A stretch of 64,000 nucleotides of DNA from Escherichia coli (GTDB taxonomy: Bacteria; Pseudomonadota; Gammaproteobacteria; Enterobacterales; Enterobacteriaceae): assembly GCF_048403405.1 (NCBI RefSeq), contig NZ_CP183129.1, one strand, 5' to 3'. A program made the position numbers and the translations under genes. The notes below the pieces were generated by a model. It saw nothing but the letters and a program-made list of their open reading frames with translations. It was not told where the DNA came from and made no database searches. This document shows positions 5,785-32,644 of the stretch, piece by piece; position 1 is the stretch's first letter, and every line of letters starts with the position of its first letter.

Positions 5785-5794
5785 AATTCATATA

Positions 5795-8304: not shown

Positions 8305-9639
8305 ATGAGTTCTGCCAAGAAGATCGGGCTATTTGCCTGTACCGGTGTTGTTGCCGGTAATATGATGGGGAGCGGTATTGCATTATTACCTGCGAACCTA
8401 GCAAGTATCGGTGGTATTGCTATCTGGGGTTGGATTATCTCTATTATTGGTGCAATGTCGCTGGCGTATGTATATGCCCGACTGGCAACAAAAAACCCGC
8501 AACAAGGTGGCCCAATTGCTTATGCCGGAGAAATTTCCCCTGCATTTGGTTTTCAGACAGGTGTTCTTTATTACCATGCTAACTGGATTGGTAACCTGGC
8601 GATTGGTATTACCGCTGTATCTTATCTTTCCACCTTCTTCCCAGTATTAAATGATCCTGTTCCGGCGGGTATCGCCTGTATTGCTATCGTCTGGGTATTT
8701 ACCTTTGTAAATATGCTCGGCGGTACCTGGGTAAGCCGTTTAACCACTATTGGTCTGGTGCTGGTTCTTATTCCTGTGGTAATGACAGCTATTGTTGGCT
8801 GGCATTGGTTTGATGCTGCGACTTATGCTGCTAACTGGAATACTGCGGATACCACTGATGGTCATGCGATCATTAAAAGTATTCTGCTCTGCCTGTGGGC
8901 CTTCGTGGGTGTTGAATCCGCAGCAGTAAGTACTGGTATGGTTAAAAACCCGAAACGTACCGTTCCGCTGGCAACCATGCTGGGTACTGGTTTAGCAGGT
9001 ATTGTTTATATCGCTGCGACTCAGGTGCTTTCCGGTATGTATCCGTCTTCTGTAATGGCAGCTTCCGGTGCTCCGTTTGCAATCAGTGCTTCAACTATCC
9101 TCGGTAACTGGGCTGCGCCGCTGGTTTCTGCATTCACCGCCTTTGCGTGCCTGACCTCTCTGGGCTCCTGGATGATGTTGGTAGGCCAGGCAGGTGTACG
9201 TGCCGCTAACGACGGTAACTTCCCGAAAGTTTATGGTGAAGTCGACAGCAACGGTATTCCGAAAAAAGGTCTGCTGCTGGCTGCAGTGAAAATGACTGCC
9301 CTGATGATCCTCATCACTCTGATGAACTCTGCCGGTGGTAAAGCATCTGACCTGTTCGGTGAACTGACCGGTATCGCAGTACTGCTGACTATGCTGCCGT
9401 ACTTCTACTCTTGCGTTGACCTGATTCGTTTTGAAGGCGTTAACATCCGCAACTTTGTCAGCCTGATCTGCTCTGTACTGGGTTGCGTGTTCTGCTTCAT
9501 CGCGCTGATGGGCGCAAGCTCCTTCGAGCTGGCAGGTACCTTCATTGTCAGCCTGATTATCCTGATGTTCTACGCTCGCAAAATGCACGAGCGCCAGAGC
9601 CACTCAATGGATAACCACACAGCGTCTAACGCACATTAA
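8305..9639 (+). CDS. cadB: lysine:cadaverine antiporter CadB, 444 aa
   Basis: ORF with RBS aggaga; APC-family transporter; paralogous to the adiC product in this window; matches recalled CadB. Confidence 0.95.
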   Translation: MSSAKKIGLFACTGVVAGNMMGSGIALLPANLASIGGIAIWGWIISIIGAMSLAYVYARLATKNPQQGGPIAYAGEISPAFGFQTGVLYYHANWIGNLAIGITAVSYLSTFFPVLNDPVPAGIACIAIVWVFTFVNMLGGTWVSRLTTIGLVLVLIPVVMTAIVGWHWFDAATYAANWNTADTTDGHAIIKSILLCLWAFVGVESAAVSTGMVKNPKRTVPLATMLGTGLAGIVYIAATQVLSGMYPSSVMAASGAPFAISASTILGNWAAPLVSAFTAFACLTSLGSWMMLVGQAGVRAANDGNFPKVYGEVDSNGIPKKGLLLAAVKMTALMILITLMNSAGGKASDLFGELTGIAVLLTMLPYFYSCVDLIRFEGVNIRNFVSLICSVLGCVFCFIALMGASSFELAGTFIVSLIILMFYARKMHERQSHSMDNHTASNAH

Positions 9640-9718
9640 TTAAAAGTATTTTCCGAGGCTCCTCCTTTCATTTTGTCCCATGTGTTGGGAGGGGCCTTTT
9701 TTACCTGGAGATATGACT

Positions 9719-11866
9719 ATGAACGTTATTGCAATATTGAATCACATGGGGGTTTATTTTAAAGAAGAACCCATCCGTGAACTTCATCGCGCGCTTGAAC
9801 GTCTGAACTTCCAGATTGTTTACCCGAACGACCGTGACGACTTATTAAAACTGATCGAAAACAATGCGCGTCTGTGCGGCGTTATTTTTGACTGGGATAA
9901 ATATAATCTCGAGCTGTGCGAAGAAATTAGCAAAATGAACGAGAACCTGCCGTTGTACGCGTTCGCTAATACGTATTCCACTCTCGATGTAAGCCTGAAT
10001 GACCTGCGTTTACAGATTAGCTTCTTTGAATATGCGCTGGGTGCTGCTGAAGATATTGCTAACAAGATCAAGCAGACCACTGACGAATATATCAACACTA
10101 TTCTGCCTCCGCTGACCAAAGCATTGTTTAAATATGTTCGTGAAGGTAAATATACTTTCTGTACTCCTGGTCACATGGGCGGTACTGCATTCCAGAAAAG
10201 CCCGGTAGGTAGCCTGTTCTATGATTTCTTTGGTCCGAACACCATGAAATCTGATATTTCCATTTCAGTATCTGAACTGGGTTCTCTGCTGGATCACAGT
10301 GGTCCACACAAAGAAGCAGAACAGTATATCGCTCGCGTCTTTAACGCAGACCGCAGCTACATGGTGACCAACGGTACTTCCACTGCGAACAAAATTGTTG
10401 GTATGTACTCTGCTCCGGCAGGCAGCACCATTCTGATTGACCGTAACTGCCACAAATCGCTGACCCACCTGATGATGATGAGCGATGTTACGCCAATCTA
10501 TTTCCGCCCGACCCGTAACGCTTACGGTATTCTTGGTGGTATCCCACAGAGTGAATTCCAGCACGCTACCATTGCTAAGCGCGTGAAAGAAACACCAAAC
10601 GCAACCTGGCCGGTACATGCTGTAATTACCAACTCTACCTATGATGGTCTGCTGTACAACACCGACTTCATCAAGAAAACACTGGATGTGAAATCCATCC
10701 ACTTTGACTCCGCGTGGGTGCCTTACACCAACTTCTCACCGATTTACGAAGGTAAATGCGGTATGAGCGGTGGCCGTGTAGAAGGGAAAGTGATTTACGA
10801 AACCCAGTCTACTCACAAACTGCTGGCGGCGTTCTCTCAGGCTTCCATGATCCACGTTAAAGGTGACGTAAACGAAGAAACCTTTAACGAAGCCTACATG
10901 ATGCACACCACCACCTCTCCGCACTACGGTATCGTGGCGTCCACTGAAACCGCTGCGGCGATGATGAAAGGCAATGCAGGTAAGCGTCTGATCAACGGTT
11001 CCATTGAACGTGCGATCAAATTCCGTAAAGAGATCAAACGTCTGAGAACGGAATCTGATGGCTGGTTCTTTGATGTATGGCAGCCGGATCATATCGATAC
11101 CACTGAATGCTGGCCGCTGCGTTCTGACAGCACCTGGCACGGCTTCAAAAACATCGATAACGAGCACATGTATCTTGACCCGATCAAAGTCACCCTGCTG
11201 ACTCCGGGGATGGAAAAAGACGGCACCATGAGCGACTTTGGTATTCCGGCCAGCATCGTGGCGAAATACCTCGACGAACATGGCATCGTTGTTGAGAAAA
11301 CCGGTCCGTATAACCTGCTGTTCCTGTTCAGCATCGGTATCGATAAGACCAAAGCACTGAGCCTGCTGCGTGCTCTGACTGACTTCAAACGTGCGTTCGA
11401 CCTGAACCTGCGTGTGAAAAACATGCTGCCGTCTCTGTATCGTGAAGATCCTGAATTCTATGAAAACATGCGTATTCAGGAACTGGCTCAGAATATCCAT
11501 AAACTGATTGTTCACCACAATCTGCCGGATCTGATGTATCGCGCATTTGAAGTGCTGCCGACAATGGTAATGACTCCGTATGCTGCGTTCCAGAAAGAGC
11601 TGCACGGTATGACCGAAGAAGTTTACCTCGACGAAATGGTAGGTCGTATTAACGCCAATATGATCCTTCCGTATCCGCCGGGAGTTCCTCTGGTAATGCC
11701 GGGTGAAATGATCACCGAAGAAAGCCGTCCGGTTCTGGAGTTCCTGCAGATGCTGTGTGAAATCGGCGCTCACTATCCGGGCTTTGAAACCGATATTCAC
11801 GGTGCATACCGTCAGGCTGATGGCCGCTATACCGTTAAGGTATTGAAAGAAGAAAGCAAAAAATAA
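9719..11866 (+). CDS. cadA: inducible lysine decarboxylase CadA, 715 aa
   Basis: ORF track starts at 9680; ATG at 9719 gives MNVIAILNHMGVYFKEEP matching recalled CadA; PLP-lysine motif region STHKLL present; paralog of the adiA product. Confidence 0.95.
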   Translation: MNVIAILNHMGVYFKEEPIRELHRALERLNFQIVYPNDRDDLLKLIENNARLCGVIFDWDKYNLELCEEISKMNENLPLYAFANTYSTLDVSLNDLRLQISFFEYALGAAEDIANKIKQTTDEYINTILPPLTKALFKYVREGKYTFCTPGHMGGTAFQKSPVGSLFYDFFGPNTMKSDISISVSELGSLLDHSGPHKEAEQYIARVFNADRSYMVTNGTSTANKIVGMYSAPAGSTILIDRNCHKSLTHLMMMSDVTPIYFRPTRNAYGILGGIPQSEFQHATIAKRVKETPNATWPVHAVITNSTYDGLLYNTDFIKKTLDVKSIHFDSAWVPYTNFSPIYEGKCGMSGGRVEGKVIYETQSTHKLLAAFSQASMIHVKGDVNEETFNEAYMMHTTTSPHYGIVASTETAAAMMKGNAGKRLINGSIERAIKFRKEIKRLRTESDGWFFDVWQPDHIDTTECWPLRSDSTWHGFKNIDNEHMYLDPIKVTLLTPGMEKDGTMSDFGIPASIVAKYLDEHGIVVEKTGPYNLLFLFSIGIDKTKALSLLRALTDFKRAFDLNLRVKNMLPSLYREDPEFYENMRIQELAQNIHKLIVHHNLPDLMYRAFEVLPTMVMTPYAAFQKELHGMTEEVYLDEMVGRINANMILPYPPGVPLVMPGEMITEESRPVLEFLQMLCEIGAHYPGFETDIHGAYRQADGRYTVKVLKEESKK

Positions 11867-11877
11867 TTAGCTCGTAC

Positions 11878-11906
11878 AAGGGAAGTGGCTTGCCACTTCC
11901 CTTTTT
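11878..11906 (+). terminator. rho-independent terminator downstream of cadA
   Basis: Hairpin gggaagtgg-cttg-ccacttccc followed by ttttttg. Confidence 0.7.
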
Positions 11907-11924
11907 TGCTCATAAGGAGAACAC

Positions 11925-13382
11925 ATGAAAACACCCTCACAGCCGCGCGCGATATACTATATCGTGGCGATCCAAATCTGGGAGTACTTCAGTTTTTACG
12001 GCATGCGTGCCTTACTCATTCTCTATCTCACCCATCAGCTTGGTTTTGATGATAACCATGCCATCAGCCTGTTCAGCGCATATGCTTCTCTGGTTTACGT
12101 TACCCCTATTCTCGGCGGCTGGCTTGCCGACCGCCTGCTCGGCAACCGCACTGCAGTGATTGCCGGCGCGCTGTTAATGACCCTTGGCCATGTAGTGCTG
12201 GGCATTGATACAAATTCAACCTTTAGCCTGTATCTGGCGCTGGCAATCATTATTTGTGGCTACGGTTTATTCAAATCAAACATCAGCTGTTTGCTTGGCG
12301 AGCTCTACGACGAGAACGATCATCGACGTGATGGCGGTTTTTCGCTGCTGTATGCTGCAGGCAATATCGGTTCTATCGCCGCCCCCATCGCCTGCGGCCT
12401 GGCTGCTCAGTGGTATGGATGGCATGTTGGCTTTGCCCTTGCGGGTGGCGGCATGTTTATCGGTTTGTTGATTTTCTTAAGCGGTCATCGTCATTTCCAG
12501 TCCACGCGTAGTATGGATAAGAAAGCGCTCACTAGCGTCAAATTTGCCTTACCAGTATGGAGCTGGTTAGTGGTGATGCTCTGTTTAGCCCCAGTATTTT
12601 TTACCCTGCTGCTGGAGAACGACTGGTCCGGATATTTGCTGGCGATCGTTTGCCTCATTGCAGCACAAATCATTGCCCGCATGATGATCAAATTCCCCGA
12701 ACACCGCCGTGCTCTTTGGCAAATTGTATTGTTGATGTTTGTCGGGACGTTGTTCTGGGTACTGGCACAACAGGGCGGCAGTACCATCAGCTTGTTTATC
12801 GATCGCTTTGTGAATCGTCAGGCATTCAATATTGAAGTACCTACAGCACTATTCCAGTCGGTGAATGCCATTGCGGTGATGCTCGCTGGGGTTGTTCTGG
12901 CCTGGCTGGCGTCGCCAGAAAGCCGCGGCAATTCAGCATTGCGCGTCTGGCTGAAGTTTGCCTTTGGCTTACTGCTGATGGCTTGTGGCTTTATGTTGCT
13001 GGCATTTGATGCCCGACATGCAGCGGCTGGCGGTCAAGCGTCAATGGGCGTGATGGTATCCGGGCTGGCGCTAATGGGCTTTGCTGAACTCTTTATTGAC
13101 CCGGTGGCGATTGCGCAAATCACGCGTCTGAAAATGTCTGGCGTATTAACCGGTATTTATATGCTGGCAACAGGCGCGGTCGCCAACTGGCTGGCAGGCG
13201 TCGTGGCACAGCAGACGACAGAGTCGCAAATTAGCGGTATGGCAATTGCCGCTTACCAGCGATTCTTTTCTCAGATGGGAGAGTGGACGTTGGCTTGTGT
13301 CGCGATCATCGTGGTATTGGCCTTTGCTACCCGTTTTCTGTTTAGCACGCCGACGAATATGATACAGGAGAGCAACGATTAA
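11925..13382 (+). CDS. dtpC: proton-dependent di/tripeptide transporter DtpC (YjdL), 485 aa
   Basis: ORF with RBS aaggag; POT/PTR2-family MFS transporter; matches recalled DtpC. Confidence 0.93.
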
Positions 13383-13618
13383 CTGTCGTAAAAACAATTG
13401 GTTATGAATAAATTAACTTTCAGTTTATCACACTAGCAAATCGAGATTAATAAGTCATTTAAACCATTTTTATGGTTATTTATTAGTGATATCAACTTGA
13501 GGTAAGCGTTAGTTTCGATAAGATAAACTGAGTTATTAATAGTCGAGGCAGATAATACAGTGTACCGATCTGTCTCTTTATCTACGCTAAATTGAAAGCT
13601 GGATTTAGAGGAACCAAA

Positions 13619-15136
13619 ATGTCTGAACGAGAAACACGGGGAGCCAATGAGGCTATTGATTTTAACGATGAACTGAGAAATCGCCGCGAAAAACTGGCGG
13701 CACTACGTCAGCAAGGTGTGGCGTTTCCCAATGATTTTCGCCGCGACCATACCTCTGACCAGTTGCACGAAGAGTTTGATGCGAAGGATAACCAGGAACT
13801 GGAATCCTTAAACATTGAAGTCTCGGTTGCTGGCCGAATGATGACCCGTCGTATCATGGGGAAAGCCTCCTTTGTAACGTTGCAGGATGTCGGTGGCCGT
13901 ATTCAACTGTACGTTGCAAGAGATAGCCTGCCAGAAGGTGTTTATAACGATCAGTTTAAAAAATGGGATCTGGGTGACATTATCGGTGCCCGCGGTACGC
14001 TGTTTAAGACGCAAACGGGTGAGCTTTCCATTCACTGTACTGAGCTGCGCCTGCTGACTAAAGCACTACGTCCTTTACCAGATAAATTCCATGGTCTGCA
14101 GGATCAGGAAGTCCGTTATCGTCAACGTTATCTGGACCTCATCGCTAACGATAAATCCCGTCAAACGTTTGTTGTCCGTTCAAAAATTCTGGCCGCTATC
14201 CGTCAGTTCATGGTCGCGCGCGGCTTTATGGAAGTAGAAACCCCGATGATGCAGGTAATTCCAGGTGGGGCATCTGCTCGCCCGTTTATTACCCATCATA
14301 ACGCTCTGGATTTAGATATGTACCTGCGTATCGCGCCAGAGCTGTATCTGAAACGTCTGGTTGTAGGCGGTTTTGAACGGGTATTCGAAATCAACCGTAA
14401 CTTCCGTAATGAAGGTATTTCTGTTCGCCATAATCCTGAGTTCACAATGATGGAACTCTACATGGCGTATGCGGATTACCACGATTTGATTGAACTGACA
14501 GAGTCACTGTTCCGCACCCTGGCACAAGAGGTTCTGGGTACCACTAAAGTCACTTATGGCGAGCATGTGTTTGATTTCGGCAAACCGTTTGAAAAACTCA
14601 CCATGCGCGAAGCAATCAAAAAATATCGTCCAGAAACCGATATGGCCGACCTGGATAATTTTGATGCCGCTAAAGCATTAGCTGAATCTATTGGTATTAC
14701 GGTAGAGAAAAGCTGGGGGCTGGGACGTATTGTCACGGAGATCTTTGATGAAGTGGCAGAAGCACATCTGATTCAGCCAACCTTTATTACGGAATATCCC
14801 GCAGAAGTGTCACCGCTGGCGCGCCGTAATGATGTTAACCCGGAAATCACCGACCGATTTGAATTCTTCATCGGTGGTCGTGAAATCGGTAATGGTTTTA
14901 GCGAATTAAACGACGCAGAAGATCAGGCTGAACGTTTCCAGGAACAGGTTAACGCTAAAGCTGCAGGTGACGACGAAGCCATGTTCTATGACGAAGATTA
15001 CGTGACTGCGCTGGAATATGGTTTGCCACCAACCGCTGGTCTGGGTATTGGTATCGACCGAATGATTATGCTGTTTACAAACAGTCATACTATTCGCGAC
15101 GTTATTCTCTTCCCGGCGATGCGCCCACAGAAATAA
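13619..15136 (+). CDS. lysU: lysyl-tRNA synthetase, heat-inducible isoform LysU, 505 aa
   Basis: ORF track starts at 13592; ATG at 13619 gives the [25 protein letters not shown]-terminus of class II LysRS; position next to dtpC/cadA identifies it as lysU rather than lysS. Confidence 0.93.
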
Positions 15137-15148
15137 TTTTCACTTTAA

Positions 15149-15182
15149 TGAACGAAGCAGTCAGGCGACTGCTTCGTTCATC
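15149..15182. terminator. hairpin between convergent lysU and ghoT (possible bidirectional terminator)
   Basis: 12-bp perfect inverted repeat tgaacgaagcag/ctgcttcgttca; no strong T-tract on either side. Confidence 0.4.
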
Positions 15183-15254
15183 ATTCCGCAAATCCAGTTT
15201 TGAGGAGAGACGCTTCGTTTCACGATAACCAGCGGGTCCACTCAACTACAGCTC

Positions 15255-15428
15255 CTAAAAGAGAGAAAAAAGTAATGCCACAGGCAGACTCATTGGCCAG
15301 GTTATTCCGACCAGGAATGCACTAAGTAAACGAATATGTGTTTTCTCATGTGAGATAAACCAGATAATGACAAAGGATATGTTCACACCAATCACATAAA
15401 AAATTAATATTTTAGAGAATAGTGCCAT
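15255..15428 (-). CDS. ghoT: type V toxin GhoT, small membrane-lytic peptide, 57 aa
   Basis: Not in the supplied ORF track (below size cutoff); minus-strand translation read by hand gives MALFSKILIFYVIGVNISFVIIWFISHEKTHIRLLSAFLVGITWPMSLPVALLFSLF, matching recalled GhoT; immediately downstream of ghoS. Confidence 0.85.
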   Translation of the reverse strand: MALFSKILIFYVIGVNISFVIIWFISHEKTHIRLLSAFLVGITWPMSLPVALLFSLF

Positions 15429-15455
15429 TTTTTATGTTCTTCTTATCCTTCCTGG

Positions 15456-15752
15456 CTACTTGTAAAACTGACGGAAATAGTCATCAACGGTCATAATGTT
15501 GAGGTCAAAATCAATATCCGGTAAGTCTAAGCATTTAAGCCTGATTAAATCTTCGATTTCACTTGCGGCTAACGATGTCGTTATTGCGAAGGAGTTTTCA
15601 TTCAATTGTCGTGGTATCCCATATTCATCAGCCACGATAGAGGAGAAATTCATATCATACATCAATGATCTTAACCTTAAGAACACTGAGGAATAAGATG
15701 ATGGATAATCAAAAGAAACAACATAAGTATTGAACTTGTTTTTACCTTCCAT
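15456..15752 (-). CDS. ghoS: type V antitoxin GhoS (endoribonuclease cleaving ghoT mRNA), 98 aa
   Basis: ORF MEGKNKFNTYVVSFDYPSSYSSVFLRLRSLMYDMNFSS... matches recalled GhoS (YjdK). Confidence 0.9.
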   Translation of the reverse strand: MEGKNKFNTYVVSFDYPSSYSSVFLRLRSLMYDMNFSSIVADEYGIPRQLNENSFAITTSLAASEIEDLIRLKCLDLPDIDFDLNIMTVDDYFRQFYK

Positions 15753-15978
15753 AATATGACTCCTATCAATATTGAACGCTCTGGGGACGCAAAACTTATT
15801 AACCCCGATTGATGATTCTCATATAGGAGATATTCTTTTTTTTGCTCAGTAAAGGGGATGACTTGGGACAAAAAAACGCGCTCTCTGCCCATTCTTTGTG
15901 CATCCCCCTACCCTTCAGATGCTCACCTGCATCACACCGCGGAGAGCATGAAAAATATTGTGACTCTGTACTCTCCCA

Positions 15979-16251
15979 TCAACTGCGAATATCATCATAC
16001 TCCCGCGTTTTATCAAATTCGTGTTTCGCAAATGGGCATAGTGGGATAATTTTTCGTTTTTCCCGACGCATTTTTTCCACGACTTTCGCAACCAGCTGTT
16101 TACCAATCCCCTGCCCTTTCAGGCTTTCATCGACATCGGTATGTTCGATAATCGCTAAATTCTCTCCGGTCGGCACAAAGACAATTTCAGCGATTTGCTT
16201 GCCCTGTTCGTCATTAATGTAAAATTTATTGTGGCCTTCGCGTATTTCCAT
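15979..16251 (-). CDS. yjdJ: GNAT-family N-acetyltransferase YjdJ, 90 aa
   Basis: ORF with acetyl-CoA-binding-like motif ([18 protein letters not shown]); matches recalled YjdJ. Confidence 0.85.
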
Positions 16252-16262
16252 TTTACCCTCGC

Positions 16263-16493
16263 TTATTTATGACGGTATTTCAGCGCGCCGCTCGGGCACG
16301 TATCAATCACTTTAACCACAGTGGCAACGTCGACTTCATCCGGCATGATCCACGGCTTTCGTTTGAGATTAAATAACTTGCCGTTGCCACGTACGCAATT
16401 GCCAGAATGCTGACATATCGCAGTATTGAAATAGACATCGATCTTTTCGCCGGTATAACAGCGATAACCCCCGTCCAGTAGCGCCCGATCCAT
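16263..16493 (-). CDS. yjdI: small cysteine-rich protein YjdI (DUF1271, putative Fe-S/ferredoxin-like), 76 aa
   Basis: [41 protein letters not shown]...CPSGALKY with spaced cysteines; matches recalled YjdI. Confidence 0.85.
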
Positions 16494-16673
16494 GACCTTC
16501 CCTCTCTCATCAGTATGATTATCGCTATAAGCATAGCCCCGGAATCTTCATTCAGCACTGGCAGTTTCCGTTGCCAGAATCTCTTCCCCTATATAGCCAA
16601 TCATTCTTACTCCCTTTGAATTACCCGCCTCATCAGAGATAATGCTTAAGAAATTTGTCACACAAGGAAGCTG

Positions 16674-18305
16674 ATGAGACATTCATTGCCCTACCGCATG
16701 TTACGCAAACGTCCGATGAAATTGAGTACCACAGTGATCTTAATGGTCAGCGCGGTACTGTTCTCGGTGCTATTGGTGGTGCATCTGATTTACTTCTCGC
16801 AAATCAGTGATATGACGCGAGACGGGCTAGCCAACAAGGCACTGGCGGTGGCGCGTACCCTCGCCGACTCGCCGGAAATCCGGCAGGGCTTGCAGAAAAA
16901 ACCGCAGGAGAGCGGCATCCAGGCCATCGCGGAAGCCGTGCGCAAACGCAACGATCTGCTGTTTATTGTCGTTACCGATATGCAAAGTCTTCGCTATTCG
17001 CACCCTGAAGCCCAGCGTATTGGTCAGCCATTTAAAGGTGATGACATCCTTAAGGCGCTGAATGGCGAAGAAAATGTCGCTATCAATCGCGGTTTTCTGG
17101 CGCAGGCTTTACGCGTATTTACCCCCATCTACGATGAAAATCATAAACAAATTGGCGTGGTGGCGATCGGCCTTGAGTTAAGTCGCGTGACCCAACAGAT
17201 CAATGACAGTCGCTGGAGCATTATCTGGTCGGTATTATTTGGCATGCTGGTCGGACTGATTGGCACCTGCATTCTGGTTAACGTACTGAAAAAAATTCTT
17301 TTTGGCCTGGAACCCTACGAAATCTCCACGCTGTTTGAGCAACGCCAGGCCATGTTGCAGTCCATCAAAGAAGGCGTCGTTGCCGTGGACGATCGCGGCG
17401 AGGTCACGCTGATCAACGATGCCGCACAAGAATTGCTGAATTACCGTAAGTCGCAGGACGATGAGAAACTGTCGACGCTCAGCCACGCGTGGTCACAGGT
17501 GGTAGATGTCTCGGAAGTGTTACGCGACGGTACCCCGCGCCGCGACGAAGAGATTACGATTAAAGATCGGCTATTACTGATCAACACCGTTCCGGTGCGC
17601 AGTAATGGCGTTATCATCGGTGCCATTTCAACCTTCAGGGACAAAACTGAAGTACGTAAACTGATGCAGCGACTCGACGGTCTGGTCAACTATGCTGACG
17701 CACTTCGTGAACGATCCCACGAATTTATGAATAAATTGCATGTGATTCTCGGATTATTGCATCTGAAGAGTTATAAGCAGTTGGAAGATTACATTCTCAA
17801 AACAGCCAATAACTATCAGGAAGAGATTGGCTCTCTGCTGGGTAAGATCAAATCTCCGGTTATCGCTGGTTTTTTGATCAGCAAGATTAACCGCGCGACC
17901 GATTTAGGCCATACGCTGATTTTAAACAGTGAAAGCCAGCTGCCAGACAGCGGCAGTGAGGACCAGGTCGCGACGCTGATTACCACATTGGGAAATCTGA
18001 TAGAAAACGCGCTGGAAGCATTAGGGCCGGAACCCGGAGGCGAAATTAGCGTAACATTGCACTACCGTCACGGCTGGCTGCACTGTGAAGTTAACGATGA
18101 TGGACCGGGGATCGCACCCGACAAAATCGATCACATTTTTGACAAAGGTGTCTCGACAAAAGGAAGCGAGCGAGGCGTCGGTTTAGCACTTGTCAAACAA
18201 CAGGTAGAAAATCTCGGCGGCAGCATCGCCGTGGAATCGGAACCCGGGATTTTCACACAATTTTTTGTCCAGATACCCTGGGACGGGGAGAGGTCGAACA
18301 GATGA
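16674..18305 (+). CDS. dcuS: C4-dicarboxylate sensor histidine kinase DcuS, 543 aa
   Basis: Full ORF; TM segments flank a periplasmic sensing domain; H-box and HATPase motifs (DDGPGI) present; matches recalled DcuS. Confidence 0.95.
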   Translation: MRHSLPYRMLRKRPMKLSTTVILMVSAVLFSVLLVVHLIYFSQISDMTRDGLANKALAVARTLADSPEIRQGLQKKPQESGIQAIAEAVRKRNDLLFIVVTDMQSLRYSHPEAQRIGQPFKGDDILKALNGEENVAINRGFLAQALRVFTPIYDENHKQIGVVAIGLELSRVTQQINDSRWSIIWSVLFGMLVGLIGTCILVNVLKKILFGLEPYEISTLFEQRQAMLQSIKEGVVAVDDRGEVTLINDAAQELLNYRKSQDDEKLSTLSHAWSQVVDVSEVLRDGTPRRDEEITIKDRLLLINTVPVRSNGVIIGAISTFRDKTEVRKLMQRLDGLVNYADALRERSHEFMNKLHVILGLLHLKSYKQLEDYILKTANNYQEEIGSLLGKIKSPVIAGFLISKINRATDLGHTLILNSESQLPDSGSEDQVATLITTLGNLIENALEALGPEPGGEISVTLHYRHGWLHCEVNDDGPGIAPDKIDHIFDKGVSTKGSERGVGLALVKQQVENLGGSIAVESEPGIFTQFFVQIPWDGERSNR

Positions 18306-19021
18306 TCAATGTATTAATTATCGATGACGACGCAATGGTCGCGGAGCTGAATCGCCGATACGTAGCACAAATCCCGGGCTTTCAATGCTGTGGAACAGCC
18401 TCGACGCTGGAGAAAGCCAAAGAGATTATCTTCAATAGCGATACGCCTATCGACCTGATATTGCTCGATATCTATATGCAAAAAGAGAACGGGCTCGATT
18501 TACTGCCTGTCCTGCATAACGCACGTTGCAAAAGTGATGTGATTGTCATCTCCTCCGCAGCCGATGCGGCAACCATTAAAGATTCGCTGCATTACGGTGT
18601 CGTGGATTACCTGATCAAACCCTTCCAGGCTTCCCGCTTTGAAGAGGCGCTCACCGGCTGGCGGCAAAAGAAAATGGCGCTGGAAAAACATCAGTATTAT
18701 GACCAGGCCGAGCTTGATCAGCTAATCCACGGCAGCAGCTCCAACGAGCAGGATCCTCGTCGCTTGCCAAAAGGCTTAACGCCGCAGACGTTACGCACGC
18801 TGTGCCAGTGGATTGACGCGCATCAGGACTATGAGTTTTCAACCGACGAGCTGGCTAACGAGGTTAACATTTCGCGTGTTTCCTGCCGTAAATACCTCAT
18901 CTGGCTGGTCAACTGCCACATCTTGTTCACCAGTATCCATTATGGCGTCACGGGGCGTCCGGTTTACCGTTACCGTATTCAGGCAGAACACTACTCACTG
19001 CTGAAACAATATTGCCAATAA
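18302..19021 (+). CDS. dcuR: response regulator DcuR, 239 aa
   Basis: ATGA start/stop overlap with dcuS; CheY-like receiver (IIDDD...LLDIYM) and C-terminal HTH; matches recalled DcuR. Confidence 0.95.
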   Translation: MINVLIIDDDAMVAELNRRYVAQIPGFQCCGTASTLEKAKEIIFNSDTPIDLILLDIYMQKENGLDLLPVLHNARCKSDVIVISSAADAATIKDSLHYGVVDYLIKPFQASRFEEALTGWRQKKMALEKHQYYDQAELDQLIHGSSSNEQDPRRLPKGLTPQTLRTLCQWIDAHQDYEFSTDELANEVNISRVSCRKYLIWLVNCHILFTSIHYGVTGRPVYRYRIQAEHYSLLKQYCQ

Positions 19022-21009: not shown

Positions 21010-22656
21010 ATGTCAAACAAACCCTTTATCTACCAGGCACCTTTCCCGATGGGGAAAGACAATACCGAATACTATCTACTCACTTCCGATTACGTTAGCG
21101 TTGCCGACTTCGACGGCGAAACCATTCTGAAAGTGGAACCAGAAGCCCTGACCCTGCTGGCGCAGCAAGCCTTTCACGACGCTTCTTTCATGCTCCGCCC
21201 GGCCCACCAGAAACAGGTCGCGGCTATTCTTCACGATCCAGAAGCCAGCGAAAACGACAAGTACGTGGCGCTGCAATTCTTAAGAAACTCCGAAATCGCC
21301 GCCAAAGGCGTGCTGCCGACCTGCCAGGACACCGGCACTGCGATCATCGTCGGTAAAAAAGGCCAGCGCGTGTGGACCGGTGGCGGTGATGAAGAAGCGC
21401 TGTCGAAAGGCGTCTATAACACCTATATCGAAGATAACCTGCGCTATTCACAGAACGCGCCGCTGGACATGTATAAAGAGGTCAACACCGGCACGAACCT
21501 GCCTGCGCAAATCGACCTGTACGCGGTAGATGGCGATGAGTACAAATTCCTTTGCGTTGCGAAAGGCGGCGGCTCTGCCAACAAAACGTATCTCTACCAG
21601 GAAACCAAAGCCCTGCTGACTCCCGGCAAACTGAAAAACTTCCTCGTCGAGAAAATGCGTACCCTCGGTACTGCAGCCTGCCCGCCGTACCATATCGCGT
21701 TTGTGATTGGCGGTACGTCTGCGGAAACCAACCTGAAAACCGTCAAGTTAGCAAGCGCTCACTATTACGATGAACTGCCGACGGAAGGGAACGAACATGG
21801 TCAGGCGTTCCGCGATGTCCAGCTGGAACAGGAACTGCTGGAAGAGGCCCAGAAACTCGGTCTTGGCGCGCAGTTTGGTGGTAAATACTTCGCGCACGAC
21901 ATTCGCGTTATCCGTCTGCCACGTCACGGTGCATCCTGCCCGGTAGGCATGGGCGTCTCCTGCTCCGCTGACCGTAACATTAAAGCGAAAATCAACCGCG
22001 AAGGTATCTGGATCGAAAAACTGGAACACAACCCAGGCCAGTACATTCCGGAAGAACTGCGCCAGGCCGGTGAAGGCGAAGCGGTGAAAGTTGACCTTAA
22101 CCGCCCGATGAAAGAGATCCTCGCCCAGCTTTCGCAATACCCGGTATCCACCCGCTTGTCGCTCACCGGCACCATTATTGTGGGTCGAGATATTGCACAC
22201 GCCAAGCTGAAAGAGCTGATTGACGCCGGTAAAGAACTGCCGCAGTACATCAAAGATCACCCGATCTACTACGCGGGTCCGGCGAAAACGCCTGCCGGTT
22301 ATCCATCAGGTTCACTTGGCCCAACCACCGCAGGTCGTATGGACTCCTACGTGGATCTGCTGCAATCCCACGGCGGCAGCATGATCATGCTGGCGAAAGG
22401 CAACCGCAGCCAGCAGGTTACCGACGCGTGCCATAAACACGGCGGCTTTTACCTCGGTAGCATCGGCGGTCCAGCGGCGGTACTGGCGCAGCAGAGCATC
22501 AAGCATCTGGAATGCGTCGCTTATCCGGAGCTGGGTATGGAAGCTATCTGGAAAATCGAAGTAGAAGATTTCCCGGCGTTTATCCTGGTCGATGACAAAG
22601 GCAACGACTTCTTCCAGCAAATCGTCAACAAACAGTGCGCGAACTGCACTAAGTAA
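21010..22656 (+). CDS. fumB: class I (Fe-S) fumarate hydratase FumB, 548 aa
   Basis: Full [27 protein letters not shown]...; conserved dcuB-fumB linkage; matches recalled FumB. Confidence 0.95.
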
Positions 22657-23408: not shown

Positions 23409-23424
23409 CAACGTGCGCTTTGTT

Positions 23425-23460: not shown

Positions 23461-23546
23461 CAAAATTTGCAAATCCAAAGCATTACATTAAGACATGGCC
23501 TGATAAACATATCGCATCAGGCCATTTTCGTTAGCTATTGTCCACG

Positions 23547-27815: not shown

Positions 27816-30083
27816 ATGAAAGTATTAATTGTTGAAAGCGAGTTTCTCCATCAAGACACCTGGGTCGGTAACGCCGTTGAGCGTCTGGCTGATGCTTTAA
27901 GCCAGCAAAATGTTACCGTGATTAAATCCACCTCCTTTGATGATGGTTTTGCCATTCTCTCTTCAAACGAAGCCATTGACTGCCTGATGTTCAGCTATCA
28001 AATGGAACATCCGGACGAACATCAAAACGTCAGACAATTGATCGGTAAGCTTCATGAGCGCCAACAAAACGTGCCGGTCTTCCTGTTGGGCGATCGGGAA
28101 AAAGCCCTCGCCGCAATGGACCGGGATCTGCTGGAGCTTGTCGATGAATTCGCCTGGATTCTGGAAGATACCGCCGACTTTATCGCCGGACGCGCCGTTG
28201 CCGCGATGACCCGCTACCGCCAGCAGCTGTTGCCGCCACTGTTTAGCGCGCTGATGAAATATAGCGACATCCATGAATATTCCTGGGCAGCACCAGGCCA
28301 CCAGGGCGGCGTTGGTTTTACCAAAACACCCGCCGGACGTTTCTACCATGACTACTATGGTGAAAACCTGTTCCGCACCGACATGGGCATCGAACGAACT
28401 TCCCTCGGTTCTTTGCTTGACCATACTGGCGCATTTGGCGAAAGCGAAAAATATGCCGCACGCGTATTTGGTGCCGATCGCTCCTGGTCGGTAGTCGTCG
28501 GTACTTCCGGCTCTAACCGCACCATCATGCAGGCTTGCATGACCGATAACGATGTCGTGGTCGTTGACCGTAACTGCCATAAATCCATCGAACAAGGCTT
28601 GATGCTGACAGGCGCGAAACCGGTCTACATGGTGCCAAGCCGCAACCGCTACGGCATTATCGGGCCAATCTATCCGCAGGAAATGCAACCTGAAACCTTG
28701 CAGAAGAAAATCAGTGAAAGCCCGCTGACTAAAGACAAAGCCGGGCAAAAACCGTCTTACTGCGTGGTGACCAACTGCACCTATGACGGCGTGTGTTATA
28801 ACGCTAAAGAAGCGCAGGATCTGCTGGAAAAAACCTCCGATCGTCTGCACTTTGACGAAGCCTGGTACGGCTATGCACGTTTCAACCCGATCTATGCCGA
28901 TCACTATGCCATGCGCGGCGAACCTGGCGATCACAACGGTCCTACCGTTTTCGCCACCCACTCCACCCACAAACTGCTGAATGCGCTGTCACAGGCCTCT
29001 TATATTCATGTACGTGAAGGTCGTGGGGCGATTAACTTCTCCCGCTTCAACCAGGCCTACATGATGCATGCCACCACCTCCCCGCTGTATGCCATCTGCG
29101 CATCCAACGACGTGGCGGTGTCGATGATGGACGGCAACAGCGGCCTGTCACTGACTCAGGAAGTGATCGACGAAGCGGTTGATTTCCGTCAGGCGATGGC
29201 GCGGCTGTATAAAGAGTTCACCGCTGACGGTAGCTGGTTCTTCAAACCGTGGAACAAAGAAGTCGTCACCGACCCACAAACCGGCAAAACCTATGACTTT
29301 GCTGACGCACCAACCAAACTGCTGACCACCGTTCAGGACTGCTGGGTCATGCATCCGGGCGAAAGCTGGCACGGCTTCAAAGATATTCCGGATAACTGGA
29401 GTATGCTCGACCCAATTAAAGTCAGCATCCTTGCTCCGGGAATGGGTGAAGATGGTGAACTGGAAGAAACCGGTGTTCCGGCGGCGCTGGTCACTGCCTG
29501 GCTTGGTCGCCACGGCATTGTGCCTACCCGCACCACTGACTTCCAAATCATGTTCCTGTTCTCTATGGGCATAACCCGTGGGAAATGGGGGACTCTGGTT
29601 AACACCCTTTGCTCCTTCAAACGCCACTATGACGCCAACACACCGCTGGCGCAGGTGATGCCGGAACTTGTTGAACAATATCCTGACACTTACGCGAACA
29701 TGGGGATTCACGATCTGGGTGACACCATGTTTGCCTGGCTGAAAGAAAACAACCCTGGCGCACGGTTGAACGAAGCCTATTCCGGCCTGCCGGTGGCGGA
29801 AATCACCCCACGTGAAGCGTACAACGCGATTGTCGACAACAATGTCGAACTGGTATCCATTGAAAACCTACCAGGACGCATCGCGGCAAACTCAGTTATC
29901 CCGTATCCGCCAGGAATCCCGATGCTGCTGTCTGGTGAAAACTTCGGCGATAAAAACAGTCCGCAAGTAAGTTATTTACGCTCGCTGCAATCCTGGGACC
30001 ATCATTTCCCTGGATTTGAACACGAAACTGAAGGGACTGAAATTATTGACGGTATTTACCACGTTATGTGTGTGAAAGCGTAA
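27816..30083 (+). CDS. adiA: biodegradative (acid-inducible) arginine decarboxylase AdiA, 755 aa
   Basis: ORF track starts at tandem ATG 27813; second ATG gives MKVLIVESEFLHQD matching recalled AdiA; PLP motif STHKLL; paralog of the cadA product. Confidence 0.94.
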   Translation: MKVLIVESEFLHQDTWVGNAVERLADALSQQNVTVIKSTSFDDGFAILSSNEAIDCLMFSYQMEHPDEHQNVRQLIGKLHERQQNVPVFLLGDREKALAAMDRDLLELVDEFAWILEDTADFIAGRAVAAMTRYRQQLLPPLFSALMKYSDIHEYSWAAPGHQGGVGFTKTPAGRFYHDYYGENLFRTDMGIERTSLGSLLDHTGAFGESEKYAARVFGADRSWSVVVGTSGSNRTIMQACMTDNDVVVVDRNCHKSIEQGLMLTGAKPVYMVPSRNRYGIIGPIYPQEMQPETLQKKISESPLTKDKAGQKPSYCVVTNCTYDGVCYNAKEAQDLLEKTSDRLHFDEAWYGYARFNPIYADHYAMRGEPGDHNGPTVFATHSTHKLLNALSQASYIHVREGRGAINFSRFNQAYMMHATTSPLYAICASNDVAVSMMDGNSGLSLTQEVIDEAVDFRQAMARLYKEFTADGSWFFKPWNKEVVTDPQTGKTYDFADAPTKLLTTVQDCWVMHPGESWHGFKDIPDNWSMLDPIKVSILAPGMGEDGELEETGVPAALVTAWLGRHGIVPTRTTDFQIMFLFSMGITRGKWGTLVNTLCSFKRHYDANTPLAQVMPELVEQYPDTYANMGIHDLGDTMFAWLKENNPGARLNEAYSGLPVAEITPREAYNAIVDNNVELVSIENLPGRIAANSVIPYPPGIPMLLSGENFGDKNSPQVSYLRSLQSWDHHFPGFEHETEGTEIIDGIYHVMCVKA

Positions 30084-30408: not shown

Positions 30409-31170
30409 ATGAGGATTTGCAGCGACCAACCTTGTATTGTTTTATTGACTGAAAAAGATGTCTGGATAAGGGTGAATGGGAAAGAACCTATTAGCCTTAA
30501 AGCTAACCATATGGCGTTATTAAATTGTGAAAATAATATTATCGACGTCTCCTCTCTTAATAACACTTTGGTTGCTCATATTAGTCACGACATCATCAAA
30601 GATTACCTCCGGTTTCTGAATAAAGATCTCTCGCAAATACCAGTATGGCAACGTAGTGCTACGCCCATCCTCACCCTGCCATGCCTGACGCCAGACGTCT
30701 TTCGCGTTGCCGCGCAACATAGCATGATGCCCGCTGAAACTGAGTCAGAAAAGGAACGAACACGTGCATTATTATTCACTGTGCTATCCCGTTTTCTCGA
30801 CAGTAAAAAATTCCTTTCACTAATGATGTATATGTTACGTAATTGTGTAAGTGACAGCGTTTATCAAATTATTGAAAGCGATATCCACAAAGACTGGAAT
30901 CTTAGTATGGTAGCCAGTTGTTTATGTCTTAGCCCGAGTCTGTTAAAGAAAAAGCTGAAAAGCGAAAACACCAGTTATAGCCAAATAATCACCACCTGCC
31001 GCATGCGTTATGCCGTAAATGAATTAATGATGGACGGTAAAAATATCTCTCAGGTATCACAATCCTGCGGCTACAACAGTACGTCGTACTTTATTTCTGT
31101 CTTTAAAGACTTCTACGGTATGACGCCTCTGCATTATGTTAGTCAGCACAGAGAACGCACTGTCGCCTGA
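30409..31170 (+). CDS. adiY: AraC-family regulator AdiY, 253 aa
   Basis: ORF MRICSDQPCIVLLTEKDVWIRVNG...; located between adiA and adiC; preceded by a very AT-rich upstream region; matches recalled AdiY. Confidence 0.92.
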   Translation: MRICSDQPCIVLLTEKDVWIRVNGKEPISLKANHMALLNCENNIIDVSSLNNTLVAHISHDIIKDYLRFLNKDLSQIPVWQRSATPILTLPCLTPDVFRVAAQHSMMPAETESEKERTRALLFTVLSRFLDSKKFLSLMMYMLRNCVSDSVYQIIESDIHKDWNLSMVASCLCLSPSLLKKKLKSENTSYSQIITTCRMRYAVNELMMDGKNISQVSQSCGYNSTSYFISVFKDFYGMTPLHYVSQHRERTVA

Positions 31171-31306
31171 TTTTTAACCTTAACGAAGAGCTATATTAAT
31201 AACGGCATCAGCGATAACCCGGTCGATAATAATTCAACTATCGAATGCAGGCGTATGATATGACGTAATTTATTGTCACGAAGCTCGCCTTCGCAGGAGT
31301 TTAATT

Positions 31307-32644
31307 ATGTCTTCGGATGCTGATGCTCACAAAGTGGGCTTAATCCCCGTCACCCTGATGGTGTCGGGGAATATTATGGGGTCAGGTGTTTTTCTGTTAC
31401 CTGCAAACCTGGCCTCCACTGGCGGGATTGCCATTTATGGATGGTTGGTGACGATTATCGGTGCGCTGGGGCTCTCGATGGTATACGCCAAAATGTCGTT
31501 CCTCGACCCAAGTCCTGGTGGTTCTTACGCTTACGCCCGCCGCTGCTTTGGGCCGTTTCTCGGTTATCAAACCAACGTCCTCTACTGGCTGGCCTGCTGG
31601 ATCGGCAATATCGCCATGGTGGTCATTGGCGTAGGTTATTTAAGTTACTTCTTCCCGATTCTGAAAGATCCATTGGTATTAACCATCACCTGCGTCGTGG
31701 TGCTGTGGATCTTCGTCCTGCTGAACATTGTCGGTCCGAAAATGATCACCCGCGTGCAGGCCGTTGCCACCGTGCTGGCGCTGATCCCCATCGTCGGGAT
31801 TGCCGTATTTGGCTGGTTCTGGTTCCGTGGTGAAACCTATATGGCGGCATGGAACGTCAGCGGCCTGGGCACCTTCGGCGCGATTCAAAGTACCCTTAAC
31901 GTTACGCTGTGGTCGTTCATCGGTGTGGAAAGTGCCTCCGTTGCCGCAGGTGTGGTGAAAAACCCGAAACGCAACGTCCCTATCGCCACCATTGGTGGGG
32001 TATTGATTGCCGCCGTTTGCTATGTGCTCTCCACCACCGCGATTATGGGGATGATCCCTAATGCCGCACTGCGCGTTTCTGCCTCGCCATTCGGTGATGC
32101 CGCACGGATGGCGTTGGGTGACACCGCCGGGGCCATTGTTTCCTTCTGCGCAGCTGCGGGTTGCTTAGGTTCACTGGGCGGCTGGACATTGCTGGCGGGT
32201 CAAACGGCGAAAGCCGCTGCCGATGACGGACTGTTCCCACCAATTTTTGCCCGTGTAAATAAAGCGGGCACGCCAGTGGCGGGGCTGATTATCGTCGGTA
32301 TTTTGATGACCATCTTCCAGCTCAGCAGCATTTCACCAAACGCGACCAAAGAGTTCGGTCTGGTTTCTTCCGTCTCGGTCATCTTTACACTGGTGCCATA
32401 TCTTTACACCTGTGCGGCGTTACTGCTGCTCGGCCACGGTCACTTTGGTAAAGCACGTCCGGTATATCTGGCAGTTACTACCATTGCCTTCCTCTACTGC
32501 ATCTGGGCCGTGGTGGGGTCCGGGGCGAAAGAGGTTATGTGGTCATTTGTCACCCTGATGGTCATCACCGCCATGTATGCGCTGAATTACAACCGGCTGC
32601 ATAAAAACCCGTATCCCTTAGATGCACCAATAAGCAAAGATTAA
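31307..32644 (+). CDS. adiC: arginine:agmatine antiporter AdiC, 445 aa
   Basis: APC-family transporter paralogous to the cadB product; matches recalled AdiC. Confidence 0.95.

Follow-up and report, generated by a model that had tools for sequence, protein, structure and literature searches.

The lysine (cad) and arginine (adi) decarboxylase modules and the two C4-dicarboxylate carriers (dcuA and dcuB) that lie close together on the Escherichia coli chromosome are true ancient paralogues whose closeness is very probably secondary, arising from a lineage-specific insertion beside a tRNA gene, with no ancient regional duplication preserved. The analysis concerns a 64,000-nucleotide stretch of DNA (the window), which is 100% identical to E. 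coli chromosomes. Gene positions were taken from the RefSeq annotation of an identical strain and from an ORF map of the window (Table 1), and by both all named cad, adi, dcu, asp and fum genes are on the + strand. An earlier, sequence-only reading had these gene identities and positions correct. The interval that it singled out, 8305-32644, opens with the first base of cadB and closes with the last of adiC; aspA and dcuA are upstream of this interval, yet within the 32 kb over which it counted two decarboxylase/antiporter modules and two dcu modules.

In the cad and adi modules, an amino acid is imported, a cytoplasmic proton is consumed by PLP-dependent decarboxylation, and the amine is exported; cadCBA converts lysine to cadaverine, and adiA-adiY-adiC converts arginine to agmatine. 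Among the Dcu-family C4-dicarboxylate carriers, dcuA partners aspartase, and dcuB partners fumarase B under DcuSR control. The cadCBA and adiA-adiY-adiC acid-resistance systems of the window are identical to those of E. coli, being the reference locus itself, and DcuA and DcuB are ordinary members of their family without any difference. The sequence-only reading labelled all this known biology, and rightly, as genes, functions and paralogy are textbook E. coli; the finding as it was stated is already known and ordinary. Its further description of the genes as all anaerobic or acid-stress functions suits cad, adi and dcu, but not dtpC, ghoTS, yjdJI, yjdF and melRAB, which have no such role.

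Table 1. Features of the cad-dcu-adi region, in window coordinates.
Feature	Position	Strand	Basis
aspA (aspartase), conserved backbone member	9..1445	+	Pfam Lyase_1 and FumaraseC_C
dcuA, anaerobic C4-dicarboxylate carrier	1563..2864	+	PF03605 491 bits; TIGR00770 697 bits
tRNA-Phe (pheU); synteny breaks, and islands attach, at its 3´ end	5709..5784	+	
pheU-dcuS slot filling, E. coli-specific: integrase fossil, cad block, ghoTS, yjdJI	5785..16612		Salmonella homology gap
P4-type tyrosine integrase fossil, internally deleted, frameshifted	5948..6141	+	PGAP pseudogene in other strains; tblastn
cadC-cadB-cadA-dtpC-lysU block, 8.8 kb, moves as unit	6332..15149	+	cross-genus boundary comparison
cadC, ToxR-like activator of cadBA	6401..7939	+	NF007540 752 bits, cutoff 400
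cadB, lysine/cadaverine antiporter	8305..9639	+	NF007754 920 bits, cutoff 585
cadA (LdcI), inducible lysine decarboxylase	9719..11866	+	NF011929 1628 bits, cutoff 1056
dtpC, peptide permease co-travelling with cadCBA	11925..13382	+	TIGR00924
lysU, second lysyl-tRNA synthetase, last block gene (PGAP name: lysS)	13619..15136	+	
dcuS-dcuR, two-component regulator of dcuB-fumB	16674..19021 (dcuS 16674-18305, dcuR 18302-19021)	+	
dcuB, anaerobic fumarate/succinate antiporter	19592..20932	+	PF03605 487 bits; NF009136 761 bits
fumB, class I fumarase	21010..22656	+	Pfam Fumerase
adiA, biodegradative arginine decarboxylase	27816..30083	+	NF011603 1704 bits, cutoff 1167
adiY, AraC-type activator	30409..31170	+	RefSeq annotation; top NCBIfam match is the GadX model, below cutoff
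adiC, arginine/agmatine antiporter	31307..32644	+	NF007929 892 bits, cutoff 574

The three proposed paralogies are borne out. Pairwise BLASTP, the check that the sequence-only reading had suggested, gave identities far above background for CadA/AdiA (36% over 740 aa, 479 bits, E=9e-164), CadB/AdiC (38% over 447 aa, E=5e-110) and DcuA/DcuB (36% over 404 aa, E=7e-80), the last in agreement with the long-known figure. CadA and AdiA both contain the Pfam domains OKR_DC_1_N (the wing), OKR_DC_1 (the PLP major domain) and OKR_DC_1_C, all far above gathering scores. The BLASTP alignment sets QSTHKLL of CadA against HSTHKLL of AdiA, with K367 and K386, respectively, which established structural knowledge identifies as the PLP-binding lysines of the S-T-H-K motif. 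CadA passes the lysine model NF011929 and AdiA the arginine model NF011603, each falling under the other's cutoff; the cadA ORF has an alternative opening at 9680. CadB and AdiC share the AA_permease_2 fold, and each passes its own curated antiporter equivalog model. On TIGR00905, which is broader, AdiC falls short of the cutoff (353 vs 409). Its scores on the CadB model and on a model for histidine/histamine antiporters are equally high, which indicates an antiporter family wider than the Cad, Adi and SpeF-PotE modules. DcuA and DcuB both pass PF03605 and TIGR00770 (697 and 674 bits on the latter). A third paralogous pair, AspA/FumB, was considered and rejected: the two proteins showed no homology when compared and belong to different Pfam families (Lyase_1 and Fumerase). 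CadC and AdiY likewise gave no similarity when the window proteins were compared; AdiY is weakly similar to MelR.

The closest paralogue of CadA is LdcC (69% identity), encoded elsewhere in the genome, while CadB and AdiC, and likewise DcuA and DcuB, are each other's nearest relatives among those E. coli members of the families that were fetched. A third E. coli module, speF-potE, draws on both protein families and likewise couples decarboxylation to exchange, but it lies elsewhere on the chromosome, beside kdpE, and its enzyme and antiporter stand further from those of Cad and Adi than the latter do from each other (SpeF is 32-33% identical to CadA/AdiA, and PotE 32-33% identical to CadB/AdiC). 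This pattern of likeness fits enzyme-plus-antiporter modules that may have had a common history. The phylogeny of the decarboxylases has already been published, and there too ornithine decarboxylases are further from the lysine and arginine enzymes than these are from one another (PMC6257575). Orthologues across orders are 69-95% identical, against 36-38% between paralogues, and by this measure the paralogue splits are older than the divergence of Vibrio, Aeromonas and Enterobacterales, and far older than the E. coli arrangement. When we looked for recent duplication at the DNA level in the window, only four stretches of 50-93 nt and 70-75% identity came up, in the conserved cadA/adiA and dcuA/dcuB cores; recent duplication or gene conversion is thus absent.

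The sequence-only reading took the arrangement to reflect ancient regional duplication: a tandem duplication would have copied an ancestral stretch, some 18 kb long, that carried a dcu gene, an enzyme acting on C4 acids and a decarboxylase with its antiporter, leaving diverged copies, aspA-dcuA...cadBA and dcuB-fumB...adiAYC, still in place. Its statement that the decarboxylase modules are on the same strand about 18 kb apart is right, with start-to-start distances of 18,097 bp for cadA-adiA, 18,029 bp for dcuA-dcuB and 23,002 bp for cadB-adiC. The genes are also collinear on one strand, dcuA then cadA and dcuB then adiA, and the offsets (18.03 and 18.1-18.2 kb) are near-equal, as a segmental copy would give and with a chance, on a post hoc estimate, of roughly 1%; setting LdcC aside, moreover, Cad has its nearest counterpart in Adi and vice versa. 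Nevertheless, we regard a preserved tandem duplication as very unlikely. The near-equality of the offsets is coincidental and strain-dependent: they are unequal in strains that have an island at pheU, such as MS 69-1, and in about 32% of E. coli genomes. The intervening genes are unrelated, cutA, dsbD, yjdC, cadC and aspA having no similarity to fumB, yjdF, melB, melA, melR and adiY, and the module order differs (cadB-cadA vs adiA-adiY-adiC), with the antiporter genes on opposite sides of the enzyme genes. That a spacing should be kept within 1% while the paralogues diverged to 36% identity and every intervening gene was replaced is implausible. The position of LdcC, the nearest relative of CadA, elsewhere in the genome and the age of the splits also speak against it.

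The synteny comparison across Enterobacterales, also suggested by the sequence-only reading, weighs further against duplication in place. We analysed 79 CadA-centred loci with 10 kb flanks, one representative per species, among which 67 are cadB-cadA loci from about 30 genera. Cad is linked to dcuA or to dcuSR-dcuB in two of these 67, both from Escherichia, and at least seven different chromosomal settings were counted for the cad block. The accA/tilS-type site, whose flanking genes encode DnaE, AccA, YaeR and TilS, accounts for 19 of the 67; this is the ldcC site of E. coli, and it holds cad in Aeromonas, Plesiomonas, Edwardsiella, Hafnia and Serratia; besides Aeromonas, four enterobacterial families use it. 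The hmp/glnB-type site accounts for 13 and holds cad in Salmonella and Kluyvera, the Salmonella order being csiE-hcaT-glyA-hmp, then cad, then glnB-glrR-glrK-purL. Still other sites are used in Klebsiella, Pseudescherichia and Escherichia albertii.

The unit that travels between these sites is cadC-cadB-cadA-dtpC, with or without lysU. In most cadC-cadB-cadA loci, across many genera, dtpC is the next gene after cadA, and lysU is linked to the block in Escherichia, Klebsiella, Raoultella, Buttiauxella and Pseudescherichia. The block boundaries defined in the window coincide with those in the last four of these genera, and a shorter version, from cadC to dtpC, is found in others. E. albertii has exactly the same span in common with E. 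coli, at 93% identity and with different flanks, which is explained equally well by a rearrangement break just past lysU or by transposition of the block. The DNA of the block is slightly nearer to Klebsiella (75-81%) than to Salmonella (71-78%), a difference that hints at transfer.

For adiA, dcuB and dcuA, a handful of contexts was compared. The adi/dcuB arrangement of Salmonella is the same as that of E. coli, but the context of adiA differs in Kosakonia, Budvicia and Providencia, and that of dcuB differs in Klebsiella, Dickeya and Morganella. In the genomes sampled, dcuSR stands beside dcuB, and the dcuSR-dcuB-fumB grouping occurs, only in Escherichia and Salmonella; the aspA-dcuA pairing is kept across Enterobacterales. 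Among these genomes the linkage is thus common to no lineages beyond Escherichia for cad, and beyond Escherichia and Salmonella for adi and dcuB. Published work likewise finds the surroundings of adc not conserved and describes strong effects of HGT on the family (PMC6257575). The distance from dcuA to dcuB in Salmonella appears to be about 21.7 kb, if the SdiA-regulated gene found at the two locus ends is presumed to be the same.

What these comparisons favour is an insertion at the tRNA-Phe gene pheU. The conserved backbone is aspA-dcuA-cutA-dsbD-yjdC-pheU, terminating at the tRNA: the order groESL-fxsA-aspA-dcuA-cutA-dsbD-yjdC is kept in Salmonella, Pluralibacter, Edwardsiella and Yersinia, and in four genera besides Escherichia a tRNA-Phe follows yjdC and synteny breaks at it. 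Beyond the tRNA, dcuSR-dcuB-fumB-mel-adi-eptA is found in the Escherichia/Salmonella lineage only. A point against this explanation is that it gives no account of how dcuA and dcuB came to be placed on opposite sides of pheU in the Escherichia/Salmonella ancestor. Between pheU and dcuS lies a slot that begins at the 3´ end of the tRNA and finishes 61 bp ahead of dcuS. Homology with Salmonella stops exactly at 5784, the pheU 3´ end, and returns at 16613; Salmonella, with the same flanks, fills the slot with other genes, which is also at odds with tandem duplication. The E. coli filling, consisting of the cad block with ghoTS and yjdJI, is confined to E. coli and its closest relatives.

The cad block probably reached this slot aboard a P4-type element that integrated at pheU, of which a decayed integrase would be left. 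Between pheU and cadC there is a fossil of roughly 190 bp, in the tRNA-to-int orientation. Its tblastn match to a Salmonella houtenae integrase (26.6 bits, E=1e-4) is of modest significance, the best of 200 shuffles reaching 20.4, and there is an additional weak match to integrase residues 1-9. With CP4-57 IntA as comparator, the fossil scored no better than shuffled controls, and this P4-family integrase, obtained from a DNA search, took its place. The fossil is short, and could stem from some other lost element and not from the carrier of cad. At the site itself, 1,750 of 5,426 E. coli genomes (~32%) have extra DNA inserted at a 23-nt tRNA core, and in these island-bearing strains homology restarts at 5762, that is, with the last 23 nt of pheU. 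A search of the window for an attR-type repeat of the pheU 3´ end (23 nt, at most three mismatches) found none besides the tRNA itself. GC content is only mildly deviant (0.40-0.41 for cadC, 0.42 for ghoTS, and 0.46-0.50, near that of the flanks, from cadB to lysU) and is weakly informative on horizontal origin. A literature search on cadBA and pheU in combination yielded nothing.

The segment can be compared with the known E. coli tRNA-Phe (pheU/pheV) islands. In common with these, it lies directly 3´ of pheU, has a P4-type integrase remnant, possibly its own, and, in about a third of strains, newer islands at the 23-nt core, and its content depends on the genus. It differs in having no intact integrase and no detectable attR, and its cargo is core-like metabolism present in nearly all E. 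coli, whereas typical islands have strain-variable virulence genes. In full, our proposal is that in E. coli the cad operon, dtpC and lysU, perhaps along with ghoTS and yjdJI, are what survives of the cargo of a P4-type integrative element that once occupied pheU and has since decayed, that the cassette has been repeatedly re-sited in Enterobacteriaceae without recognisable mobility genes, and that its ancestral home is the accA/tilS site, with ldcC the footprint of a tandem duplicate. Taken as a whole, we hold this proposal only tentatively, at a little under an even chance.

The ancestral home at accA/tilS is already favoured by simple parsimony, and LdcC points the same way. In our tree the LdcC clade is tied to accA-yaeR-tilS, and AdiA falls outside the entire Ldc clade. 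Serratia has an ldcC-type gene in tandem with cadCBA at accA/tilS. The E. coli ldcC, although most like CadA, has neither antiporter nor regulator alongside and stands where the five genera listed above for this site keep the whole cad operon; it would be a derivative of such a tandem duplicate. The literature already traces ldcC to a duplication of ldcI (PMC6257575) and places it between accA and yaeR (PMC4832331); a literature search for ldcC, accA, cadB and tilS together found only this known placement.

The opposite polarity, in which the cad block was never imported and the Escherichia site is ancestral for Enterobacteriaceae, other genera having relocated the block independently, could draw on the absence of an att scar downstream of lysU and on a composition from cadB to lysU near the genome average. 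It would need many separate moves, converging on accA/tilS in Aeromonas, Plesiomonas, Hafniaceae and Yersiniaceae, and it sits badly with the LdcC clade at that site, in tandem with cadCBA in Serratia, and with the clean alternative filling of the pheU slot in Salmonella. We give it almost no credence.

The genes might also have been brought together by selection, if co-location of acid and anaerobic genes were advantageous, for instance because of gene dosage, co-transfer or a common chromatin or H-NS domain. Small-scale co-travel does occur, since cadCBA moves with dtpC and lysU in many genera and the adi cluster of Kosakonia contains an hdeA-like gene, and two pre-specified paralogue pairs within 32 kb would be rare by chance on a rough estimate. 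However, cad and adi are unlinked in Salmonella, Kluyvera and Pluralibacter-type genomes, which have both systems or either; the many cad contexts show no preference for the vicinity of adi or dcu; the unrelated melRAB, ghoTS and yjdF lie in between; and each module has a dedicated regulator. A selected stress neighbourhood therefore seems improbable to us. The co-regulated neighbourhood of the sequence-only reading stands in a loose sense only: cadCBA-dtpC(-lysU) is a tight unit, but CadC, AdiY and DcuSR each serve their own module.

The favoured reading, in which ancient paralogues were brought close by insertion at pheU, carries a correction of general use: nearby ancient paralogues are not to be taken for the relic of a duplication without outgroup synteny, and the striking agreement of the two 18 kb offsets is here an accident. 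The relocation history of cad is a small by-product, of modest interest for the movement of core-like metabolic operons and for the origin of the LdcI/LdcC pair.

The 24.3-kb cadB-to-adiC interval matched several E. coli chromosomes with 100% identity in a DNA search, and 5,425 of the 5,426 complete genomes of the species gave a match. We compiled the gene map from the RefSeq annotation of an identical strain, an ORF list and our own translations. The ends given in the sequence-only reading correspond to cadB and adiC; aspA and dcuA, which that reading names as well, lie upstream.

Features of the cad-adi neighbourhood (window coordinates)
Feature	Coordinates	Strand	Remark
aspA	9-1445	+	
dcuA	1563-2864	+	
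cutA, dsbD		+	between dcuA and yjdC
yjdC	5003-5602	+	
tRNA-Phe (pheU)	5709-5784	+	
P4-type integrase fossil	5948-6141	+	between pheU and cadC; internally deleted, frameshifted
cadC	6401-7939	+	
cadB	8305-9639	+	
cadA	9719-11866	+	
dtpC	11925-13382	+	
lysU	13619-15136	+	PGAP name lysS
ghoT, ghoS, yjdJ, yjdI			after lysU, before dcuS; yjdI listed on - strand
dcuS	16674-18305	+	
dcuR	18302-19021	+	
dcuB	19592-20932	+	
fumB	21010-22656	+	
yjdF	22779-23408		between fumB and adiA; + strand
melB, melA		-	after yjdF
melR			after melB and melA, before adiA; + strand
adiA	27816-30083	+	
adiY	30409-31170	+	
adiC	31307-32644	+	
eptA, basR, basS			downstream of adiC; + strand

Despite its PGAP name, lysU is the inducible paralogue by its position downstream of cadA-dtpC, and in several genera it accompanies the cad block. 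Of the 28 genes in window 1-36200, 22 run on the + strand, where GC skew is negative throughout (cumulative -0.5 to -0.6), so that the lagging strand encodes most of the neighbourhood. At 26480-26583, a 42-nt imperfect inverted repeat (76% complementary, 20-nt spacer) covers the melA 5' end and the melA-melR divergent intergenic region, and probably reflects regulator binding sites. Rfam gathering-level matches were obtained for the sRNA STnc630 (36126-36291, - strand), overlapping the basS end/pmrR region, for naRNA4 (41955-42032, + strand), a REP-derived nucleoid-associated RNA, and for a SECIS_2 element (62209-62263, + strand), presumably within a selenoprotein formate dehydrogenase gene.

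The proposed paralogy was borne out by pairwise alignment: CadA and AdiA are 36% identical over 740 residues (479 bits), CadB and AdiC 38% over 447 residues, and DcuA and DcuB 36% over 404 residues. All six proteins passed curated family models, and the PLP lysines (STHK motif) of CadA and AdiA align with each other. Gene identities and paralogy are correct, and are known biology. AspA and FumB proved unrelated by protein comparison and belong to different domain families (Lyase_1 and class I fumarase). CadC and AdiY did not match either way when 27 window proteins were compared all against all; beyond the three pairs, this comparison gave generic family likeness only (DcuR/BasR, DcuS/BasS, MelR/AdiY and DtpC/ProP). 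Since DNA-level similarity is limited to four short stretches of 70-75% identity, all within conserved cores, recent duplication and gene conversion can be dismissed. Paralogues are 36-38% identical and orthologues 69-95% across orders, which indicates that the three duplications are ancient.

The dcu and decarboxylase pairs are collinear with nearly identical offsets, dcuA and dcuB starting 18,029 bp apart (conserved DNA cores, 18,035 bp) and cadA and adiA 18,097 bp apart (cores, 18,154-18,232 bp). Tandem duplication of an 18-kb segment would give just such offsets, and we therefore examined synteny. The match is strain-dependent and accidental, because the two offsets are no longer equal in E. 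coli strains with islands at pheU. The yjdC-pheU-cadC junction is uninterrupted in 3,676 of 5,426 E. coli genomes; the remaining 1,750 regain homology at 5762, where the final 23 nt of the tRNA begin, a pattern characteristic of islands that have integrated at pheU.

Salmonella, Pluralibacter, Edwardsiella and Yersinia all keep the groESL-fxsA-aspA-dcuA-cutA-dsbD-yjdC-tRNA-Phe backbone. In all four, synteny is lost directly behind the tRNA, and a further Dcu gene was not found within 10 kb. Salmonella homology stops at 5784, the last base of pheU, and restarts at 16613, 61 bp before dcuS, so the filling of 5785-16612 is E. coli-specific. The Salmonella slot holds a PAP2 phosphatase, a TacAT-like pair, AraC/GerE regulators, an SdiA-regulated gene and a Dms-type reductase operon. 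Beyond it, the order dcuSR-dcuB-fumB-melBA-melR-adiA-adiY-adiC-eptA-basRS-proP equals that of E. coli; yjdF is missing from this otherwise collinear segment (homology gap 22672-23602).

A CadA scan of one genome per species yielded 79 loci with 10-kb flanks, which would span dcuA to dcuB in an E. coli-like arrangement; window proteins were mapped onto these loci and flank ORFs clustered. The conserved unit is cadC-cadB-cadA-dtpC, plus lysU in some genera, with DNA boundaries at gene ends in every genus compared. Dcu genes lie near cadB-cadA in two of 67 loci, both Escherichia. Nineteen of the 67 lie between dnaE-accA and tilS (Aeromonas, Plesiomonas, Edwardsiella, Hafnia, Enterobacillus, Shimwellia, Serratia), flanks whose identities were confirmed against the K-12 ldcC locus, and 13 between hmp and glnB-glrR-glrK-purL (Salmonella, Kluyvera, Pluralibacter, Superficieibacter, Phytobacter); Klebsiella/Raoultella, Pseudescherichia, Trabulsiella/Yokenella, Buttiauxella, Izhakiella and Vibrio show other contexts. 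Two or three CadA-like loci per genome were seen in Edwardsiella anguillarum (L051, L056, L059) and Hafnia (L045, L055), one Edwardsiella locus having a distant AdiA/AdiC-like pair adjoining a cadA-like gene.

The adi and dcuB contexts also vary outside Escherichia and Salmonella. AdiA orthologues share 69-93% identity over the range from Salmonella to Shewanella, and DcuB is 85-94% identical across Enterobacterales. Kosakonia carries adiA, an hdeA-like gene, adiY and adiC between xni and rnt/dnaQ, Budvicia has adiA-adiC adjoining a phage integrase, and Providencia a lone adiA near kefGB-slyD. In the Kosakonia cluster (L086 10001-15933), adiA and adiY are separated by an unknown ORF and a gene of the HdeA family of acid chaperones; it is an acid-stress grouping of another kind. 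These contexts agree with a published account in which adc context is not conserved and the family is strongly affected by HGT (PMC6257575). In Klebsiella, dcuB is a solitary gene between rpoC and the thi operon; in Morganella it follows kdpDE, and Dickeya shows a further context. Among the contexts examined, the dcuSR-dcuB-fumB grouping, and likewise its placement across pheU from aspA-dcuA, is confined to Escherichia and Salmonella. Ancient regional duplication, previously offered as the cause of the proximity, is thus not supported: collinearity is present, but intervening-gene paralogy and shared linkage are not. Among the E. coli family members compared, CadB/AdiC and DcuA/DcuB are mutually closest, but the closest CadA paralogue is encoded elsewhere.

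That paralogue is LdcC (69% identity), encoded between accA and yaeR. In a neighbour-joining tree, AdiA falls outside the entire Ldc clade, Vibrio and Aeromonas included, and therefore the Cad/Adi split is older than these orders. LdcC-like genes form one clade, and all its loci with available flanks are at accA/tilS. This tree and the locus survey point to accA|tilS as the deep cad operon site and to the E. coli position as derived. Serratia has dnaE-accA, an LdcC-like gene, yaeR, cadCBA-dtpC and tilS in tandem (L027-L032; about 2990-13660 in L027), which looks like an intermediate state of the LdcI/LdcC duplication, and Rahnella, Ewingella and Rouxiella have the LdcC-like gene alone at this site, as in E. 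coli.

We also compared ldcC, speF-potE and speC from E. coli. After LdcC, CadA is closest to AdiA (479 bits), then to SpeC and SpeF (311-330 bits), and the antiporters rank in the same way (CadB-AdiC 320 bits, AdiC-PotE 253, CadB-PotE 198). These rankings, by similarity score rather than rooted tree, are compatible with duplication of the modules as enzyme and antiporter units, and agree with a published phylogeny grouping ornithine decarboxylases apart from lysine and arginine decarboxylases (PMC6257575). The suggestion is a soft one, because AdiC scores higher on a histidine/histamine-antiporter model (400 bits) than on the CadB model (373 bits). Antiporters of the AdiC family pair also with non-homologous decarboxylases. 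speC lies ~1.2 kb from pheV, a second tRNA-Phe gene (L004, K-12 3104000-3112000), and cadCBA adjoins pheU, which may be coincidence.

How the cad block reached pheU may be recorded in the integrase fossil, labelled by PGAP as a frameshifted tyrosine recombinase without N-terminus. Window 5982-6065 matches residues 360-392 of a Salmonella houtenae P4-family integrase (26.6 bits, E=1e-4; best of 200 shuffles, 20.4 bits), 5948-5974 weakly matches its residues 1-9, and CP4-57 IntA did not match the region. The fossil is kept beside cadC even in strains carrying newer pheU islands. The tRNA-int-cargo orientation fits arrival of the block as cargo of an integrative element. However, no attR repeat of the pheU 3' end was found in the window and the block deviates only mildly in base composition, which leaves this step an inference. 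E. albertii shares exactly 6332-15149 (93% identity; L006 4195-13009), with yicG-ligB-gmk-rpoZ-spoT-trmH downstream in place of ghoTS-dcuSR and island-like genes upstream. Transposition of the block and a rearrangement with its breakpoint directly behind lysU are equally good explanations.

The present neighbourhood was assembled later than the three duplications, in two steps. The dcuSR-to-eptA segment was joined to the aspA-to-pheU backbone in the Escherichia/Salmonella lineage, and the cad block filled the pheU slot in Escherichia. Discounting the filling, dcuA and dcuB would be about 7 kb apart, and chance, tRNA hot-spot rearrangement or selection may each have placed them on either side of pheU in the Escherichia/Salmonella ancestor. 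A selected 'stress neighbourhood' keeping acid and anaerobic modules together is unnecessary as an explanation and has little support at this scale; what does travel together, as a real functional unit, is cadCBA-dtpC(-lysU) itself.
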